The translations under genes were made by a program, and so were the position numbers. Positions 788 to 57,767 of a stretch of 64,000 bases of DNA are shown piece after piece. This stretch comes from Escherichia coli. Lineage in GTDB: Bacteria; Pseudomonadota; Gammaproteobacteria; Enterobacterales; Enterobacteriaceae. Under the pieces are notes generated by a model. That model did no database searches, was not told the DNA's origin, and saw nothing but the letters and a program-made list of their open reading frames with translations. The stretch is taken from the NCBI RefSeq assembly GCF_003334305.1, contig NZ_QOWS01000026.1; one strand, written 5' to 3'. The stretch's first letter is position 1. The number at the start of each line of letters is the position of its first letter.

Positions 788-1771
788 TTATTTCACCGTA
801 CCTAAAATTTCGATTTTCGCTGCTCTGGCTTTGACTTTACGTGACCAGATAGAGGTAAGAATTGGCACCAGAATCGAAGTCACAATGACCGCCGTCGCTA
901 CCAGCGAAGTTGCTGCCGGAGCCATCGGTTTAAACGCAGGCACCATTTCTGCAATCAGCACAGGTGTCGCTACCGCGGCCCCTGCGGAACTGGAAGCGGC
1001 AATTCCGGCAGTGCCATCGCCACCGCCAATCAATTTATCGGCGATAATCAACGGAATACCGGTCACGATAATTACTGCCACACCCAACAGGATCCCCAGC
1101 AAACCAGTCTGGGCAATCACAGTCAAATCAATGGTATTGCCCAGCGCGAAGGCAAAGAATGGAATCAGCGTTTGCACCGCTTTGCTGAAAAATTCTCGTA
1201 ATTCAGGGTCAAGGTTCCCCAGGGCAAAGCCCACCAGGAACGGTAATACTGCGCCGACGAAAACATGCGGTTCAAACGAGGCAATCCCTGCAGTGCCCAG
1301 AATAATCATCGTCATGAGCGGCCCGGACTCCAACGACATCAACACAAATGCCCCAGCTTCTTCTTTTGTGCCGTACTGCTGCATGATGGAAGCGTAAAGT
1401 CCGCCATTGGTCATATCCATCGCCGCCACCAGCGCCAGCGTTGAAAGTCCGGCAAAGAATCCAACTTCAACACCATGTTCCGGAATAATGCGCGAGGCAA
1501 TTGCCGCAACCACCCACGCGACGGCAATTTTTGTTACCACCAGCGTACCGGATTTACGCAATACCGTTCCCGTCGCGCTTAATTTTATTGACGCCCCCAT
1601 GCAAAAAAACCACACCGCCAGAATGGGCACCGTACCGGTAATCATCCCGTTGGTGAATGATCCAAAATATTTCCCCGCCCCCGGCGAGAAGGTGTGGCAC
1701 AGTGCGCCAAGGAATAGCGGGACGAGCATCATCCCCCCCGGGATTTTCTCAATCGAGCGTTTTATCTGCAT
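788..1771 (-). CDS. kdgT: 2-keto-3-deoxygluconate permease
   Basis: ORF 788..1813; protein from internal Met [13 protein letters not shown] (327 aa) matches KdgT; polytopic membrane protein. Confidence 0.93.
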
Positions 1772-8743: not shown

Positions 8744-8869
8744 GCCGGATGCGGCGCGAGCGCCTTATCCGGCCTACAGGTCGGCAACAGTTGTAGGCCT
8801 GATAAGACGCGACAGCGTCGCATCAGGCATTGATTGCCGGATGCGGCACGAGCGCCTTATCCGGCCTAC
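8744..8869. repeat. REP/BIME cluster (three REP units)
   Basis: gccggatgcggcgcgagcgccttatccggcctac at 8744..8777, an inverted copy at 8793..8828, and a third at 8836..8869. Confidence 0.85.
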
Positions 8870-17359: not shown

Positions 17360-20300
17360 ATGCAGGTCAGCAGAAGGCAGTTCTTTAAGATCTGCGCTGG
17401 CGGTATGGCAGGCACCACGGCAGCGGCACTGGGTTTTGCACCCAGCGTAGCGCTCGCGGAAACCCGGCAGTATAAACTGCTGCGCACCCGCGAAACCCGT
17501 AATACCTGCACCTATTGTTCCGTAGGCTGTGGGCTGTTGATGTACAGCCTCGGTGACGGAGCAAAAAACGCCAAAGCATCTATCTTCCATATCGAAGGCG
17601 ATCCGGATCACCCGGTCAACCGCGGTGCACTTTGTCCGAAAGGCGCTGGCCTGGTGGATTTCATCCACTCCGAAAGCCGTCTGAAGTTTCCGGAATACCG
17701 TGCGCCAGGTTCTGATAAATGGCAGCAAATCAGTTGGGAAGAGGCGTTTGATCGCATCGCCAAACTGATGAAAGAAGACCGCGATGCTAACTACATTGCG
17801 CAAAACGCCGAAGGCGTGACTGTTAACCGCTGGCTCTCCACCGGGATGCTGTGTGCTTCCGCGTCGAGTAACGAAACCGGCTATTTAACGCAAAAATTCT
17901 CCCGCGCGCTGGGTATGCTCGCGGTCGACAACCAGGCGCGTGTCTGACACGGACCAACGGTAGCAAGTCTTGCTCCAACATTTGGTCGCGGTGCGATGAC
18001 CAACCACTGGGTCGACATCAAGAACGCCAACCTCGTCGTGGTGATGGGCGGTAACGCCGCTGAAGCTCACCCGGTCGGGTTCCGCTGGGCGATGGAAGCC
18101 AAAATTCACAACGGCGCGAAGCTGATTGTGATCGATCCTCGCTTTACGCGTACGGCGGCGGTAGCTGACTACTATGCCCCTATTCGTTCCGGTACTGACA
18201 TTGCTTTCCTGTCAGGCGTATTGCTGTACCTGCTGAACAATGAAAAATTCAACCGCGAATACACCGAAGCCTATACCAACGCAAGCCTGATAGTGCGTGA
18301 GGATTACGGCTTTGAAGATGGCCTGTTCACCGGCTACGACGCGGAAAAACGCAAGTACGATAAATCCTCCTGGACTTATGAACTGGACGAAAACGGCTTC
18401 GCCAAACGCGATACCACGCTGCAACATCCGCGCTGCGTGTGGAACTTGCTGAAACAGCACGTTTCCCGCTACACGCCAGATGTGGTTGAAAACATCTGTG
18501 GTACGCCAAAAGACGCGTTCCTGAAAGTCTGCGAATACATCGCAGAAACCAGTGCTCACGATAAAACTGCCTCGTTCCTCTATGCCCTCGGCTGGACGCA
18601 ACACTCCGTTGGTGCGCAAAACATTCGTACGATGGCGATGATCCAGCTGCTGCTCGGCAATATGGGGATGGCCGGCGGCGGCGTTAACGCCCTGCGCGGT
18701 CACTCCAATATTCAGGGGCTGACGGACCTGGGGCTGCTGTCGCAGAGTCTGCCAGGTTACATGACGCTGCCAAGCGAGAAGCAGACCGATCTGCAAACCT
18801 ACCTTACCGCCAACACGCCAAAACCGCTGCTGGAAGGCCAGGTAAACTACTGGGGCAACTACCCGAAATTCTTCGTCTCTATGATGAAGGCCTTCTTTGG
18901 TGATAAAGCGACGGCGGAAAATAGCTGGGGCTTTGACTGGTTGCCGAAGTGGGATAAAGGCTACGACGTCCTGCAATACTTCGAGATGATGAAAGAAGGC
19001 AAGGTCAATGGCTATATCTGCCAGGGCTTTAACCCTGTTGCCTCATTCCCGAACAAAAACAAAGTGATCGGTTGTCTGTCGAAACTGAAGTTCCTCGTCA
19101 CCATCGACCCGCTGAACACTGAAACCTCTAACTTCTGGCAGAACCACGGTGAGCTGAACGAAGTTGACTCGTCGAAGATCCAGACCGAAGTGTTCCGTCT
19201 GCCATCGACCTGCTTCGCAGAAGAGAACGGTTCAATCGTTAACTCAGGTCGCTGGTTGCAGTGGCACTGGAAAGGTGCGGACGCCCCGGGGATTGCGCTG
19301 ACTGATGGCGAGATCCTCTCCGGTATCTTCCTGCGCTTGCGCAAGATGTATGCCGAACAGGGTGGCGCGAACCCGGACCAGGTGCTGAACATGACCTGGA
19401 ACTACGCCATTCCGCATGAGCCGAAGTCGGAAGAAGTAGCGATGGAGAGCAACGGTAAGGCGCTGGCCGATATTACCGATCCGGCAACCGGTGCGGTTAT
19501 CGTCAAGAAAGGCCAACAACTTAGCTCGTTCGCCCAATTGCGCGATGACGGTACAACCTCCTGTGGCTGCTGGATTTTCGCCGGTAGCTGGACGCCGGAA
19601 GGCAACCAGATGGCGCGTCGTGATAACGCCGATCCGTCTGGCCTCGGTAACACGCTGGGCTGGGCATGGGCATGGCCGCTTAACCGCCGCATTCTGTATA
19701 ACCGCGCCTCCGCAGATCCGCAGGGTAACCCGTGGGATCCGAAGCGTCAGTTGCTGAAATGGGACGGCACTAAGTGGACCGGCTGGGATATTCCGGACTA
19801 CAGCGCAGCGCCTCCGGGTAGCGGCGTCGGGCCGTTTATCATGCAGCAGGAAGGCATGGGGCGTCTGTTTGCCCTCGATAAGATGGCGGAAGGTCCGTTC
19901 CCGGAACACTACGAGCCGTTTGAAACGCCGCTGGGAACTAACCCGCTGCATCCAAACGTTATCTCGAACCCGGCTGCACGTATCTTTAAAGACGACGCCG
20001 AAGCATTGGGTAAAGCCGATAAGTTCCCGTATGTCGGAACCACCTATCGTCTGACCGAGCATTTCCACTACTGGACCAAACACGCGCTGTTGAACGCGAT
20101 TTTGCAACCAGAGCAGTTTGTGGAAATCGGGGAGTCGCTGGCGAATAAACTTGGCATTGCCCAGGGCGATACCGTGAAAGTCTCCTCCAACCGTGGCTAT
20201 ATCAAGGCCAAAGCGGTGGTGACCAAACGTATTCGTACACTGAAAGTGAACGGCAAAGATATCGATACCATCGGTATTCCGATTCACTGGGGCTATGAAG

Positions 20301-46331: not shown

Positions 46332-46482
46332 AACTTTGCCTCAGGCATTAGAAATAGCGCGTTATTGTACACGGATTAATCGCACTACAAAACAGGATCA
46401 CAAACATCCTCCGCAAACAAGTATTGCAGAGTCCCTTTGTGATCGCTTTCACGGAGCATAAAAAGGGTTATCCAAAGGTCAT

Positions 46483-46573
46483 TGCACCAACATGGTGCTT
46501 AATGTTTCCATTGAAGCACTATATTGGTGCAACATTCACATCGTGGTGCAGCCCTTTTGCACGATGGTGCGCA
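46483..46573. promoter_or_regulatory. NtrC enhancer-like sites upstream of glnA
   Basis: Repeated TGCACCA/TGGTGCA dyads: tgcaccaacatggtgc (46483..46498), gcactatattggtgca (46516..46531), tggtgcagcccttttgcacgatggtgcgca (46544..46573). Confidence 0.6.
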
Positions 46574-51313: not shown

Positions 51314-52687
51314 TTAAATCACCCGTGAGAACTGCTGCATCCGCGCTTTCTGGCGCAGATAGGTATCAAAGCACATGCAAATGTTGCGGATCAGCAAGCG
51401 ACCTTTCGCCGTCACCTGTATTCCCTTCTCATCCACATCCACCAGCCCATCTTTTGCTAACGGGGCGAGCAGCTTGAGATCTTCCGCAAAGTAATCAGCG
51501 AAGTGCAAATCCCACTGTTTCTCAATAGGGGCGTAATCCAGACGGAAGTTGCAGATGAGCGACTTAATCACATCGCGGCGAATACAGTCATCACGCGTTA
51601 GCGCAATACCACGCCACAGCGCATTGCCTTGTTCATCCACTTGCTGATAGTACTGCTTCAACTCTTTCTGGTTCTGCGCGTAGCAGTCGCCAATCATGCT
51701 GATGGCGGAAACGCCCATCCCCAGCAGATCGGTATCGCCCTGAGTGGTGTAGCCCTGGAAGTTACGATGCAGCACGCCTTCACGCTGGGCCACCGCCAGC
51801 TCGTCATCCGGACGGGCAAAGTGATCCATACCGATAAACTGATAGCCCGATTGCGTCAGGAAGGCGATGGTTTCCTGCAGGATATCGAGTTTTTGCTGCG
51901 GACTCGGCAGGTCAGCATCTTTGATTTTGCGCTGAGCAGCAAAAATGGTCGGCAGATGCGCGTAGTTAAAGACACTCAGACGATCGGGGTTCAGCTCCGC
52001 CACACGTTTCAGGGTAAAGGCGAAACTCTCCGGCGTCTGTTTCGGCAGGCCGTAAATCAGGTCGATGTTGGTGGAGGTAAAACCAATCTCACGCGCATGG
52101 TTAAGCAGTGCAAAGATGAACTCTTCATCCTGCTCGCGGTTAACCAGACGTTGCACTTCTTTGTTGAAGTCCTGCACGCCCATGCTCAGGCGATTAAAGC
52201 CTTCGGCGCGTAAATGATCGAGTACATCCAGTTCGATTTCCCGCGGATCGACTTCGATCGAAATCTCCGCATCGGCATTGAACTGGAAGTTTTCGCGCAG
52301 CAGCTTCATCAGGCGGCTGATTTGCGCTTTATTCAGATACGTCGGCGTTCCGCCGCCCCAGTGCAATTGGCTGACGTGACGCCCGGCGAACAGCGGTGCA
52401 CGATGGACGATTTCTTGCTCCAGCGCGTCCAGATACTGATCGGCCTTGTGCTGCTGGCGAGTAACAATCTTATTGCAACCGCAGAAGTAACAAAGCTTAT
52501 GGCAGAACGGGATATGTACGTAGAGAGATAATGGACGCTCAGGATAGCGCGCCACGGCTTGTAAAAACGCCTGTTCGCCGAAGTCTTCTGAAAACTCCAG
52601 CGCGGTCGGGTACGAGGTGTATCGTGGCCCGGAATAGTTATATTTCTGGATCAGGGCCAGATCCCAGTCGATTTGCTGTACAGACAT
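51314..52687 (-). CDS. hemN: Oxygen-independent coproporphyrinogen III oxidase (radical SAM)
   Basis: 457 aa from ATG 52687 (MSVQQIDWDLALIQKYNYSGPRYTSYPTALEF...), radical-SAM CxxxCxxC (..FCHKLCYFCGC..). Confidence 0.95.
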   Translation of the reverse strand: MSVQQIDWDLALIQKYNYSGPRYTSYPTALEFSEDFGEQAFLQAVARYPERPLSLYVHIPFCHKLCYFCGCNKIVTRQQHKADQYLDALEQEIVHRAPLFAGRHVSQLHWGGGTPTYLNKAQISRLMKLLRENFQFNADAEISIEVDPREIELDVLDHLRAEGFNRLSMGVQDFNKEVQRLVNREQDEEFIFALLNHAREIGFTSTNIDLIYGLPKQTPESFAFTLKRVAELNPDRLSVFNYAHLPTIFAAQRKIKDADLPSPQQKLDILQETIAFLTQSGYQFIGMDHFARPDDELAVAQREGVLHRNFQGYTTQGDTDLLGMGVSAISMIGDCYAQNQKELKQYYQQVDEQGNALWRGIALTRDDCIRRDVIKSLICNFRLDYAPIEKQWDLHFADYFAEDLKLLAPLAKDGLVDVDEKGIQVTAKGRLLIRNICMCFDTYLRQKARMQQFSRVI

Positions 52688-52875
52688 GCTCACTCCTTCC
52701 GATGGCGTCTCTGGCGGCTACGGCGTACCGGCGGATGCCCGTTTCGGGTCATCAGCCGGTTGCGCAGCCACTTTTGTCGCCGCGACAACCGCTGTAGTTT
52801 AACGAATAACCACACCAGATAACATATAACCGGAAGGGTTATCAGCAGAACGGGAAGGCCCACGGCGGCAATCCG

Positions 52876-53385
52876 TTAGTTGCCCCGCAGCAGACGCATC
52901 ATGTCTTCTTGCTTCTCGTCTTCTTCCTCTTCTTCGTCATCGTCATAAGAGAGGCCGAGTTTCTGCATCAACTCATCAATACGATCCAGTTTAGCATCCA
53001 CCCAGGATTGCTCTTCGGCACTCAGGGTTTCGCCTGCTTCCAGACGTTCCAGCAGCGCATCCAGACGCTCATCCGTTTCCAGTAATTCCAACTCCGCCTG
53101 CGGTGAAAGCATAGGTTTCTCACTCTTCGGTTTGTGCTGTTTGGTGACTTTTTCAGTCACGCCCAATGGAATAGGGGTTTTACTGCCAATACGTGGATCT
53201 TTTGGTGCGTTCTGGCCTTTGCTGCCTGACGTGGTGTTTCCGCCCGCTGCGCGGCTGCCCGGCGCATGACCACGACGTTTTTTCTGACGCTTGCGATCAC
53301 GAGCTTCCTGATCCAGCTCCTCGCGTGTTTTTCGACGCGCTTTTGCATGACCTTTGCTGCGTGAGTTTGAAGATGATGGTTTCAT
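52876..53385 (-). CDS. yihI: Der GTPase-activating protein YihI
   Basis: 169 aa from ATG 53385 ([27 protein letters not shown]...), basic N-terminus and acidic C-terminus. Confidence 0.9.
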
Positions 53386-53451
53386 AATGGTTCGTCTTTT
53401 AGCCGTTTTATTCAGTATAGATTTGCGGCGGAATCTAACAGAAAGCAAGCA

Positions 53452-53696
53452 AAGAAAAAAGGCGACAGATTACTCTGTCGCCTTTTTTCCTGACTCATAA
53501 CCCTTAACGGGTCTTACAATCCTTGCAGGCCGCCAACACACCCTGTTTTTCCTTTAGCCGGAACAATCCGTGTTGATTCCATTTCCGTTTAATTACGTCT
53601 CCGGACGTTTGTCTTCCTGACAATCCTCTGTCTTCGCCTCCTGGCGCTCCTGACCCTCATCCTGAGTCATTGTTCCTGTTAGCGTCCTCGCTCTAT
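53452..53696 (-). ncRNA. csrC: CsrC small RNA (CsrA-sequestering)
   Basis: Minus-strand region dense in GGA/AGGA motifs ending in the hairpin ggcgacagagtaatctgtcgcc plus U-tract, 67 bp upstream of yihI; ends are approximate. Confidence 0.75.
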
Positions 53697-53966
53697 GGGT
53701 GCTACTTTACGCCTTTGCTTTAAACAAACAATCAACCGCCATCAGTATTTGCACATTTTCAGAGTTTTATATAAAAGCAATTCACTGATTTATATAGCTT
53801 ATTTGACATGCATCGCAGAATTTTCTCTGCTATTTCGCATAAAGACTATCGGCAATGTCTCACAAAGCGTATGGCTTTTACTTACAACGCTCACGCCGAA
53901 AAATCCGCCTTTTATTATGGTTCAGGTATAATCGCCACAAAGCTTTGACTGACGGAGACGACCGCT

Positions 53967-54599
53967 TTGACTAATTTGAATTATCAACAGACGCATTTTG
54001 TGATGAGTGCGCCTGATATTCGCCACCTACCTTCCGATACCGGAATTGAAGTGGCTTTTGCAGGCCGTTCCAACGCAGGTAAATCCAGCGCGCTGAACAC
54101 GCTGACTAACCAGAAAAGCCTGGCTCGTACCTCAAAAACCCCAGGGCGCACCCAGCTTATCAACCTGTTTGAAGTGGCTGACGGCAAGCGTCTGGTTGAC
54201 TTGCCTGGGTACGGTTATGCGGAAGTCCCGGAAGAGATGAAGCGCAAATGGCAGCGTGCGCTCGGCGAATACCTCGAAAAACGTCAGAGCCTGCAAGGTC
54301 TGGTGGTGCTAATGGATATTCGCCATCCGCTGAAAGATTTGGATCAGCAGATGATTGAGTGGGCGGTAGACAGCAATATCGCCGTTCTGGTGCTGCTGAC
54401 CAAAGCGGACAAACTGGCAAGCGGCGCACGTAAAGCGCAATTGAATATGGTGCGTGAAGCTGTACTGGCGTTTAACGGTGATGTGCAGGTTGAAACGTTT
54501 TCTTCGTTGAAGAAACAAGGCGTGGACAAGCTGCGGCAGAAACTGGATACCTGGTTTAGCGAGATGCAGCCTGTAGAAGAAACGCAGGACGGCGAATAA
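53967..54599 (+). CDS. engB: Ribosome biogenesis GTPase EngB (YihA)
   Basis: 210 aa ORF (M)[21 protein letters not shown]...GRSNAGKSS...; first codon is TTG at 53967 with GGAG 8 nt upstream; the ATG at 54003 is an alternative. Confidence 0.9.
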
Positions 54600-54620
54600 T
54601 TTTCTTGCCTTAATGCTTGT

Positions 54621-54699
54621 GCCGGATGTGGCGTATCCGGCCCGTAAATTCAATAGATTACAATTCTACCGTTGGCCTGATAAACATAGCGCATCAGGC
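54621..54699. repeat. REP-like palindromic units
   Basis: gccggatgtggcgtatccggc and ggcctgataaacatagcgcatcaggc. Confidence 0.5.
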
Positions 54700-54724
54700 A
54701 TTACGGATCTTTTCTTTCGCCCAA

Positions 54725-54833
54725 TAAAAAACGCCCCAGTCATTACTGACTGGGGCGGCTAAAATATTCAGCCAAATCCGATTACGTGAAGTAAAAGGTC
54801 TGAAAGATAGAACATCTTACCTCTGTACCCTAC
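54725..54833 (-). ncRNA. spf: Spot 42 small RNA
   Basis: Minus-strand sequence GTAGGGTACAGAGGTAAGATGTTCTATCTTTCAGACC...GCCGCCCCAGTCAGTAATGACTGGGGCGTTTTTTATT matches Spot 42 including its terminator; lies between engB and polA as in K-12. Confidence 0.88.
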
Positions 54834-54980
54834 GCGACTAACTTTACTCTTTTTTGTTCAGTTCAGAAAGCACTTTTTGTAATTTTTTTTCAGTTGTTGC
54901 ATAGGAATTTCTAATAGCCATCACAAAACGTGACAGCTTATGTTGCTTACTTACGAAAAAAGGGCATGTTCAGGCGAATC

Positions 54981-57767
54981 TTAGTGCGCCTGATCCCAGT
55001 TTTCGCCACTCCCCACTTCCACCAGCAACGGCACATCCAGACGGGTACAGTTTTCCATCAGTTGATGAATCTGCTTCGCGACGGCATCAACATCATCTTT
55101 ATGAACTTCAAATACCAGTTCATCGTGTACCTGCATGATCATACGTACACGCGGTTGCTCAGCCTGTAACCACGCATCAACGGCAATCATCGCCCGTTTG
55201 ATAATGTCGGCGGCGGTTCCCTGCATTGGCGCGTTAATGGCTGCACGTTCAGCCGCTGCACGACGAGCACCATTGCTGGATTTGATATCCGGCAGATACA
55301 GACGGCGTCCGTCCAGCGTTTCAACGTAGCCCTGCTCTTTCGCCTGAGCACGGGTGCGTTCCATATACTCCAGCACGCCAGGGTAGCGTTCGAAGTAAAG
55401 GTCCATGTACTTCTGCGCTTCTTTACGTGGAATGTTCAATTGCCGCGCCAGACCGAAAGCACTCATGCCATAAATCAGACCAAAGTTGATCGCTTTCGCG
55501 CTACGGCGTTGCTCGCTGGTGACGGTTTCCAGTGGCAAACCAAACACTTCTGCCGCCGTTGCCCGGTGGATATCTTTTCCTTCCGCGAATGCGGTCAGCA
55601 AGCCTTTGTCACGCGAGAGATGCGCCATAATGCGCAGTTCAATCTGCGAGTAGTCCGCTGAGACAATCACATAATCCTCTGGCGCAATAAACGCCTGGCG
55701 GATACGACGACCTTCTTCATTACGCACCGGAATGTTTTGCAGGTTAGGATCGGTTGACGATAAACGTCCCGTTGCAGTTACTGCCTGGTGATAAGAGGTA
55801 TGCACACGCCCGGTTTTCGGGTTGATCATCAGCGGCAGCTTGTCGGTGTAAGTCGACTTTAGCTTCGCCAGACCACGATACTCCAGAATCACTTTTGGCA
55901 ACGGATAGTCCAGCGCCAGTTCTTCCAGTACCTCTTCCGACGTTGACGGCGCGCCACCCGGCGTTTTCTTCAGCGGTTTAATGCCCTGTTTTTCAAACAG
56001 AATGGTTTGTAACTGCTTGGTGGAAGAAAGGTTAAATTCCTCACCTGCAATTTCATGCGCTTTCTTTTCCAGCTCAGCCAGACGAAGGGTGAGCTCTTCA
56101 GAATGATTGTGCAGCACTTTCGGATCGATCTTCACACCGTTACGTTCAATGCGTGAAAGCACCGGCACCAGCGGCATTTCGATATTCTCGAAGACGTTCA
56201 ACGGCCCTTTGTGTTTTTGCAGATCTGGCCACATTTTCAGATGCAACTGCAAGGTGACATCTGCATCTTCGGCGGCGTAACGTCCGGCTTCTTCGAGGGC
56301 AATCTGGTTAAAGGTCAGTTGATTTTTGCCTTTACCCGCAATCTCTTCAAAAGTGATGGTTTTGTGCTTCAACCAACGTTCCGCGAGGCTGTCCATATCG
56401 TGACGCCCGGCAACGCTATTGAGAATGTAGGACTCCAGCATGGTATCAAACGCAATCCCACGCAGCTCAATGCCGTAATTCGCCAGAATACCGCGATCGT
56501 ATTTCAGGTTTTGCCCGACCTTCAGCGCCTTTTCATCTTCCAGCAGCGGTTTTAGCAACTCGAGTGCACGCTCGCGAGAGATTTGATCGGGCGCGTCAAG
56601 ATAATCATGAGCAACCGGAATATATGCCGCTACGCCTGGCTCGATAGCAAAAGAAAGCCCGACCAGGTTAGCAGAGATGTTATCAAGGCTGTCGGTTTCG
56701 GTATCAAATGCAAATACCGGCGCTTTTTCCAGCTTCGCAATCCACGCTTTCAGTGTTTCTTCATCAAGGATGGTGACGTAGTTGTCATAAGAAATCACCG
56801 TTGCCGTCACTTCTGGTGCTTCGTCTGCAACACTGGTTTCCTGTGGCTTCGCGGCTGGTTTTGCCCCTTTGGCCTGTAACCATTTGCCCGCTTCGACATC
56901 AGCAGTCCAGCGTTTGAACTCATACTTTTTGAACAGCCCCAACAACTCTTCCGCTGCCGGTTGCTGCACTTCCAGTTGTTCACAGGTCAGCTCCAGTTCA
57001 ACGTCGGTTTTAATCGTCGCCAGCTGGTATGAGAGATAAGCAACTTCTTTGTTTTGCTCGAGCTTCGCTGCCATTGTTTTCGCGCCACGGAAGCTCAACC
57101 CAGCAATTTTTTCTGGCTCGGCATACAGCGTATCCAGCCCGCCCAGACCTTGCAGCAATGCCTGCGCGGTTTTTTCACCGACGCCCGGTACGCCAGGAAT
57201 GTTATCGGAGGAGTCACCCATCAGCGCCAGGAAATCGATGATCAGTTCTGGCGGCACGCCGTACTTATTCACCACCTCTTCCGGTCCGAGGATGGTATTC
57301 GTCATGGTATTGATAAGCGTAATATTTGGCGTCACCAGCTGCGCCATATCTTTATCGCCAGTGCTGATCAGCACCGGACGCCCGGCTTTTTCGGCTTCGC
57401 GCGCCAGAGTACCGATAACGTCGTCCGCTTCTACGCCAGAAACCGCCAGCAGCGGCAGTCCCATCGCTTTAACCATCGCGTGCAGGGGTTCGATTTGTGC
57501 TCGCAGATCGTTCGGCATTGGCGGGCGATGTGATTTGTAATGTTCAAACAGTTCATCACGAAAGGTTTTTCCCTTGGCGTCAAAGACCACCGCTGCATGC
57601 GTCGGTTTATATTGCATGATCAGACTGCGCAGCATGTTGAGGACACCATACATCGCACCGGTCGGCTCGCCTGCGCTGTTAGTCAGCGGGGGAAACGCGT
57701 GATATGCGCGATAAAGATAAGATGAACCATCTACAAGGATAAGTGGATTTTGGGGGATCTGAACCAT
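54981..57767 (-). CDS. polA: DNA polymerase I
   Basis: 928 aa [45 protein letters not shown]... Confidence 0.98.

Follow-up and report, generated by a model that had tools for sequence, protein, structure and literature searches.

Introduction

CsrC has been characterised as part of the carbon-storage regulatory (Csr) system of Escherichia coli since 2003. The original description, by Weilbacher et al. in that year, reportedly gave a length of 245 nt and about nine CsrA-binding elements.

Both CsrC and CsrB carry multiple high-affinity sites that sequester CsrA dimers from mRNAs (PMC7652899). For the K-12 sequence, which is identical to the one described here, binding of multiple CsrA dimers by CsrC and its antagonism of CsrA in vivo have been established experimentally (PMC7652899, PMC5876332), and evidence for the csrC transcript has been published (PMC5876332, PMC4682653), as have qRT-PCR of csrC and the effects of csrD (PMC5876332). 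K-12 studies have also reported an RNA of about 245 nt from this strand, a gel shift with purified CsrA, and effects of deleting csrC on CsrA-dependent phenotypes when csrB is deleted as well. UvrY phosphorylated by BarA activates csrC without IHF, unlike csrB (PMC4682653), and ppGpp/DksA and DEAD-box helicases also contribute to csrC control (PMC4682653, PMC5027483). The turnover of CsrC needs CsrD, RNase E and PNPase, with a response to glucose via EIIA-Glc (PMC5027483). When either of the two sRNAs is lost the other rises, through a CsrA-dependent feedback (PMC5876332). Finally, csrC is repressed by CRP-cAMP, and Spot 42 raises the level of CsrC in Salmonella (PMC7591399).

Here we describe a GGA-rich segment within a 64 kb stretch of E. 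coli DNA, the whole of which is referred to below as the window. The segment is almost certainly csrC of E. coli K-12, a CsrA-sequestering small RNA that is already known.

Identity and genomic context of csrC

The gene and its two neighbours are placed as follows.

53451..53696, minus strand: csrC gene, encoding the 246-nt CsrC RNA; +1 is 53696 and the 3' end is 53451
52876..53385, minus strand: yihI, Der GTPase-activating protein, downstream of csrC and co-directional with it
53967..54599, plus strand: yihA (engB), ribosome-biogenesis GTPase, upstream of csrC and divergent from it

In a feature-by-feature mapping, csrC of MG1655 (b4457, 246 nt) is 100% identical to positions 53451..53696 of the minus strand. 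The curated MG1655 record (NC_000913.3) describes this gene as 'ncRNA csrC, b4457, small regulatory RNA CsrC', at 4051036..4051281, with yihA and yihI on either side. A covariance-model scan of the whole window against Rfam 15 identified CsrC (RF00084) on the minus strand at 53443..53696, scoring 278.7 bits where the gathering score is 61, with E = 6.4e-88. The match covers model positions 1-255 of 255, is not truncated, and has posterior probabilities of ~1 throughout. The Rfam model runs 8 nt past the curated 3' end of csrC.

The initial annotation, made from the sequence alone, had read this segment as CsrC lying between engB and yihI, and had proposed an Rfam scan as a check. The full-length RF00084 match and the complete identity to b4457 bear out that reading, and the positions of the two flanking genes agree with it. 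The interval that it gave, 53452-53696, has the correct 5' end, while its 3' end is one base short of the curated end at 53451 on the minus strand and falls in the U-tract. The locus can be regarded as a positive control, in which a known sRNA was located to within one base from raw sequence alone.

It has been noted that csrC always adjoins yihI and yihA (PMC1488887), and in the window csrC has the divergent yihA at -270 and the co-directional yihI at about +312. Both of the spacers that flank csrC, and both flanking genes, are exact matches to MG1655. A 701-bp stretch around csrC has 100% identity to E. coli K-12 BW25113, and the locus defined by this stretch was found in all 5426 of 5426 complete E. 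coli genomes. csrC of K-12 is present both in Rfam and in curated annotation, and there is nothing new here at the sequence level. Over the larger interval 52232..55233, the window differs from MG1655 NC_000913.3 by one 1-nt indel, which is outside spf, yihA, csrC, yihI and both csrC-flanking spacers.

Orthologues and conservation

Orthologues were sought by scanning a species-representative genome collection of 298 Gb with the conserved 16-mer AGCGCCAGGAGGCGAA, followed by filtering with BLAST. The scan returned at least 120 loci, which are mostly chance matches in unrelated phyla, a 16-mer being too short for 298 Gb. Among the matches listed there are at least 16 true csrC orthologues, with 72-99% identity, from at least 8 enterobacterial genera. 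These are a divergent E. coli, six Citrobacter, two Enterobacter, Superficieibacter, Pseudocitrobacter, Pluralibacter, Pseudescherichia, Kosakonia, 'Enterobacter sp. Bisph1' and one metagenome-assembled genome (MAG); the set leaves out Salmonella, Klebsiella and Yersinia. In all those with sequenced flanks, yihA is divergent at about -260 to -273 and yihI is co-directional at about +300 to +312.

The RNA is conserved to a greater extent than the sequences around it. Between the window and the divergent E. coli, identity is 98.4% for the csrC RNA, 86.3% for the upstream spacer and 77.5% for the synonymous third positions of yihA. The corresponding values against Citrobacter are about 87%, 68-70% and 62-67% (yihA synonymous sites). 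The CsrC RNA is thus conserved beyond these neutral proxies, and is under purifying selection.

Two of the genomes deserve separate comment. The divergent E. coli is strain SCPM-O-B-8794, in which csrC is 98.4% identical to that of the window but the 270-bp upstream spacer (compared with window positions 53697..53966) is 86.3% identical. Such divergence of a spacer is unusual within one species, and it is concentrated between -130 and -20. The MAG is 'Proteobacteria bacterium OH_SBB_50', which has an Enterobacter-like csrC (1037..1292, plus strand) flanked by yihA and yihI. With a YihA that shares 91% identity with the E. coli protein, this MAG is an unclassified member of the Enterobacteriaceae.

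GGA motifs, fold and terminator

CsrA-binding sites contain GGA, and the initial annotation had singled out a GGA-rich segment of the minus strand. On the minus (RNA) strand, the interval 53452..53696 contains 14 GGA, compared with 2 on the plus strand. The mean for all 245-nt windows on both strands of the 64 kb is 3.0 (sd 1.9), so that the description as GGA-rich holds, and a count of 14 is reached only by windows that overlap csrC, the maximum elsewhere being 11-12. Mononucleotide shuffles of the segment give 7.8 +/- 2.2, and part of the excess is accounted for by its A+G-rich composition. A motif search over the window as a whole found no enrichment of GGA; the sliding 245-nt count was used instead. 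The number of motifs is stable among the 16 orthologues, with 13-15 in each.

The RNA has a minimum free energy of -86 kcal/mol, compared with -58.5 +/- 4.0 in dinucleotide shuffles (z = -6.9). From 5' to 3' its layout is five short hairpins, a long interrupted stem, a short hairpin, a hairpin free of GGA, and the terminator. The loops of the five 5' hairpins are AGGA, AGGAUGA, AGGA, GAGGAU and CGGA. The elements are listed below from 5' to 3', with the proportion of cells paired when the Rfam structure is placed on an alignment of 17 sequences.

53681..53692 (RNA 5-16), minus strand: hairpin 1, with AGGA in the loop (Rfam structure); closing pair A-U changed to G-C in 7 of 17 sequences
53651..53669 (RNA 28-46), minus strand: hairpin 2, loop AGGAUGA (Rfam structure); 72% of cells paired in the MAFFT alignment
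53635..53646 (RNA 51-62), minus strand: hairpin 3, GCGCC-AGGA-GGCGA; invariant in 17 of 17, 100% paired, no variation
53619..53632 (RNA 65-78), minus strand: hairpin 4, loop GAGGAU; 88% paired
53595..53608 (RNA 89-102), minus strand: hairpin 5, loop CGGA; 95% paired, with two compensatory pairs, U-A to C-G in 3 sequences
53534..53575 (RNA 122-163), minus strand: long interrupted stem with GGA at RNA 128 and 145 (Rfam structure); 76-81% paired
53516..53526 (RNA 171-181), minus strand: short hairpin, loop AAGGAUU; the GGA at RNA 175-177 is invariant
53500..53512 (RNA 185-197), minus strand: hairpin CCCG-UUAA-GGG, without GGA; 98.5% paired
53452..53491, minus strand: intrinsic terminator, consisting of an A-tract, a stem GGCGACAGA, a 4-nt loop and a U-tract; 98.9% paired over 17 sequences

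When the Rfam structure is projected on the sequence, 11 of the 14 GGA have no base in a pair; six of these fall in hairpin loops and the other five in single-stranded linkers. This predicted layout of exposed GGA is the architecture expected of a CsrA decoy. The terminator (53491..53452, minus strand) has a stem of 18 pairs, 7 of which are G-C, and a 4-nt loop followed by TTTTTTCTT; the strong intrinsic terminator that had been noted at this end of the segment is therefore present, U-tract included.

Support for the fold comes from the alignment. RNAalifold, applied to the MAFFT alignment, found some but not all of the CsrC hairpins, and the Rfam structure was projected and its pairs counted instead. 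On this alignment, which is blind to structure and contains 17 sequences, 89.2% of cells are paired, compared with 40-47% in slid controls in which the 3' partners were moved by 1-3 columns. Changes on both sides of a pair occur in 6 pairs (16 cells), and the observed covariation score was reached in none of 500 shuffles. Many of the stem pairs are invariant and therefore carry no covariation information.

Promoter and UvrY control region

Upstream of csrC the following elements were located.

53704..53709 (-13..-8), minus strand: putative -10 hexamer TAAAGT; all 15 aligned upstream regions have GTAAAGT
53726..53731, minus strand: putative weak -35 hexamer TTGTTT, separated from the -10 by 16 nt; all 15 aligned regions have TTGT
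53847..53864 (-168..-151), minus strand: UvrY (SirA) site TGTGAGACATTGCCGATA, an exact match to the published footprint sequence
53881..53886, minus strand: additional half-site TGTAAG, lying 16 bp farther upstream than the UvrY repeat, with spacing and sequence as in PMC4682653

A scan of 53300..54050 with the sigma-70 consensus called no promoter. We infer the -10 and -35 hexamers from their conservation and from the curated +1. The weakness of the putative -35 fits the dependence of csrC on an activator.

The sequence TGTGAGACATTGCCGATA in E. coli csrC has been footprinted with DNase I and crosslinked by UvrY in ChIP-exo (Zere et al., PMC4682653), and this published footprint sequence identifies the predicted UvrY site upstream of csrC here. 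The generic palindrome TGTRAG-N6-CTYACA, allowing up to three mismatches, has 42 hits in the window against 57 expected and has no discriminating power; the csrC site itself fits it only with three mismatches. Because the generic palindrome is not enriched, the identification of the site rests on the footprint. Half-sites at about -188 and -166, a pair that includes the TGTGAG half of the UvrY repeat, are kept in most genera.

Two further invariant blocks lie closer to yihA. The first is GATTATACCTGAA on the minus strand; read on the plus strand (53926..53931), it gives a perfect TATAAT, presumably the -10 of yihA. The second is GGTCGTCTCC, or GGAGACGACC on the plus strand (53955..53964), which is presumably the Shine-Dalgarno region of yihA.

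Open reading frames at the locus

The divergent spacer also contains an open reading frame.

53695..53931, plus strand: 78-aa ORF, judged not to be a gene; the csrC promoter, the UvrY sites and the yihA -10 all lie within it

This frame starts with ATG, overlaps the first two bases of the CsrC RNA and covers the whole of the promoter region. Were it a real protein-coding gene, the intergenic region would not be purely regulatory. The frame is open, has an ATG start, and has been deposited as a 'hypothetical protein', forming a cluster of 10 members in a collection of 15 billion proteins. All 10 are from E. coli, however, and the frame is open only in E. coli (two sequences), the second strain having a GTG start. 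In all 13 of the 13 orthologues from other genera that have enough upstream sequence, it is fragmented into unrelated short frames or absent. The two E. coli differ by 37 substitutions within the frame, distributed 14/10/13 over the codon positions and altering 21 of 78 residues, whereas YihA next door is 99.5% identical between the same two. The deposited versions are between 42 and 118 aa long, NCBIfam has no match to the frame, and it is unannotated both in curated MG1655 and by PGAP in BW25113. The conserved islands inside it are the regulatory motifs: the putative csrC -10 and -35, the UvrY half-sites and the yihA -10. We therefore consider it extremely improbable that the frame is a gene. 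The earlier suspicion that it is likely to be spurious is upheld by its restriction to E. coli, its lack of codon periodicity and of an NCBIfam match, and its absence from K-12 curation. A few E. coli submissions nevertheless carry this spurious frame over the csrC promoter as a protein.

Within the segment itself, where the initial annotation had seen no ORF, the sense-strand frames are of 22-39 aa only, none reaching 40 aa, and a 48-aa ORF on the plus strand (53354..53500) clips the terminator; the statement is correct in this sense. None of these small frames is conserved from one genus to another.

A different view of the sense strand is found in automatic annotation. In the RefSeq record of BW25113 (NZ_CP122319.1), PGAP has no ncRNA feature at csrC; the equivalent of window positions 53504..53670 (minus strand) is instead given as a pseudogene with the label 'hypothetical protein; frameshifted; internal stop', implying that the segment is a decayed protein gene. 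A 'hypothetical protein' also lies under the csrC match in 12 of the 12 E. coli genomes among the matches listed, and Enterobacter-like orthologues have a frame of 49-63 aa running through the RNA, which is probably the source of the protein evidence used by PGAP. However, the pseudogene interval consists of a 25-aa frame from ATG27 joined to a 39-aa frame from TTG. The sense frames differ between genera in start, length and presence, and Pluralibacter has none. The 16 orthologues included no intact, conserved homologue with a codon-periodic pattern of conservation. What conservation tracks is the hairpins and the GGA motifs, with compensatory changes in pairs; the curated K-12 record is an ncRNA, and the covariance-model score is overwhelming. 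There is hardly any chance that csrC is a decayed protein gene, and the pseudogene label is an annotation artefact. The RNA gene looks to be systematically mis-annotated across E. coli genomes, and there is a lesson for annotation in that an automatic pipeline turned csrC into a frameshifted 'hypothetical protein' pseudogene.

csrC being read as an RNA gene, the RNA could still have a dual function and encode a small peptide as well. Two frames are candidates.

53589..53660, minus strand: 23-aa Arg-rich frame from ATG37, candidate small ORF
53593..53670, minus strand: 25-aa acidic frame from ATG27, candidate small ORF

Of 17 orthologues, 11 have the ATG37 frame, with peptides that are almost identical, the AGGA motifs look like Shine-Dalgarno sequences, and the neighbouring Spot 42 is annotated as dual-function, encoding SpfP. 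Against this, the six most divergent genomes have lost the ATG37 frame, its length ranges from 22 to 35 aa, and the similarity of the peptides is explained by invariant nucleotides at RNA 41-67. ATG37 also follows immediately on the AGGA of the CsrA-binding loop in which it lies, with no room for Shine-Dalgarno spacing, and CsrA binding would be expected to block the access of ribosomes. The ATG27 frame is present only in E. coli and Superficieibacter. A peptide from either frame is in our view very unlikely. It is less likely still that CsrC resembles Spot 42/SpfP in translating specifically the 23-aa Arg-rich frame (53589..53660, minus strand), for which conservation is unsupportive; if it did, occupancy by CsrA would also gate the production of the peptide.

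Relation to the downstream gene yihI

The preferred reading of the segment, an independent sRNA gene, has also to be set against the proximity of yihI. On the same strand, yihI starts only 65 nt downstream of the csrC terminator, no promoter was called by the consensus scan in the spacer between them, and the arrangement of csrC and yihI is conserved in all of the orthologues. These observations would suit a GGA-rich segment that is mainly a cis-acting leader or attenuator of yihI. However, the terminator is very strong and invariant, and a discrete sRNA gene is curated at the locus. The published phenotypes of csrC deletion and over-expression act in trans, through CsrA (PMC5876332, PMC7652899). 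In addition, a -10-like hexamer, TATACT (53414..53419, minus strand), lies in the 65 nt that separate the terminator from the start codon of yihI, and could drive yihI alone. A role mainly as a leader thus has only a very slight probability, and the discussion below refers to csrC as an sRNA gene in its own right.

Other RNA elements in the window

The Rfam scan found several other RNAs in the window, the nearest being 1 kb from csrC.

54723..54833, minus strand: Spot 42 sRNA (spf), RF00021, 122.8 bits, an exact match to MG1655 b3864
54768..54815, minus strand: ORF inside spf for SpfP, the 15-aa dual-function small protein of the curated record
46413..46520, minus strand: ES222 sRNA, RF02755, a full-length Rfam match of 135.3 bits against a gathering score of 62
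17942..18000, plus strand: SECIS_3, RF01989, 84.3 bits, which implies a selenoprotein gene
8796..8866, minus strand: naRNA4/CssrE, RF02564, 73.3 bits
44455..44523, minus strand: STnc370, RF02064, 54.9 bits, barely over the gathering score of 54

From its position on the K-12 map, we take the selenoprotein gene at 17942..18000 to be probably that of a formate dehydrogenase subunit. UvrY/SirA has been found to crosslink near spf (PMC4682653).

Proposed mechanism

CsrA binding, activation by UvrY and decay through CsrD and RNase E are predicted for this locus from the literature on the identical K-12 sequence. On this basis we propose the following. Phosphorylated UvrY, the response regulator of BarA-UvrY, would bind at -168..-151 and activate csrC, whose promoter, with its putative weak -35, would start transcription at 53696 on the minus strand. 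Transcription would stop at the intrinsic terminator, with the 3' end at 53451, to give a non-coding RNA of 246 nt. About a dozen GGA would be displayed in short hairpin loops and single-stranded linkers, each of them mimicking the CsrA sites of mRNA leaders. One CsrC could in this way bind several CsrA dimers, which would be titrated off their mRNA targets, and CsrC would relieve the control that CsrA exerts on glycogen synthesis, biofilm formation, motility and related functions. CsrC would act beside the larger CsrB, and is expected to be removed by CsrD-dependent cleavage by RNase E.

Comparison with other CsrA-sequestering RNAs

The RNAs RsmY, RsmZ and RsmX of Pseudomonas work by the same sequestration of a protein on GGA loops, and are controlled by GacS-GacA, which is orthologous to BarA-UvrY (PMC1488887). 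They are, however, shorter than CsrC, and their sequence families and genomic contexts are unrelated to it; the Rfam scan found no match to any of the three in the window.

CsrB of E. coli (clan CL00106) is closer. Like CsrC, it has many GGA in hairpin loops, by which it sequesters CsrA dimers (PMC7652899), it is activated by BarA-UvrY through an inverted repeat far upstream (PMC4682653), and it decays by CsrD-dependent cleavage by RNase E (PMC5027483). It differs in being larger, with 22 GGA (PMC7652899) compared with 14 in CsrC, and in lying at a different locus, near syd. The UvrY repeat of csrB is a near-perfect palindrome and the activation of CsrB needs IHF, whereas the csrC repeat has weak symmetry and is IHF-independent (PMC4682653). 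CsrB and CsrC do not find each other in searches by sequence homology (PMC1488887).

The locus described here has the features of the CsrB/RsmB type (CL00106), as predicted from its sequence: exposed GGA, conserved hairpins, a terminator without a conserved ORF, and an upstream UvrY site. Its closest counterpart is CsrC of E. coli K-12 (b4457, RF00084), which is the same RNA, and with which the sequence, the flanking genes yihA and yihI, and the UvrY site all match.
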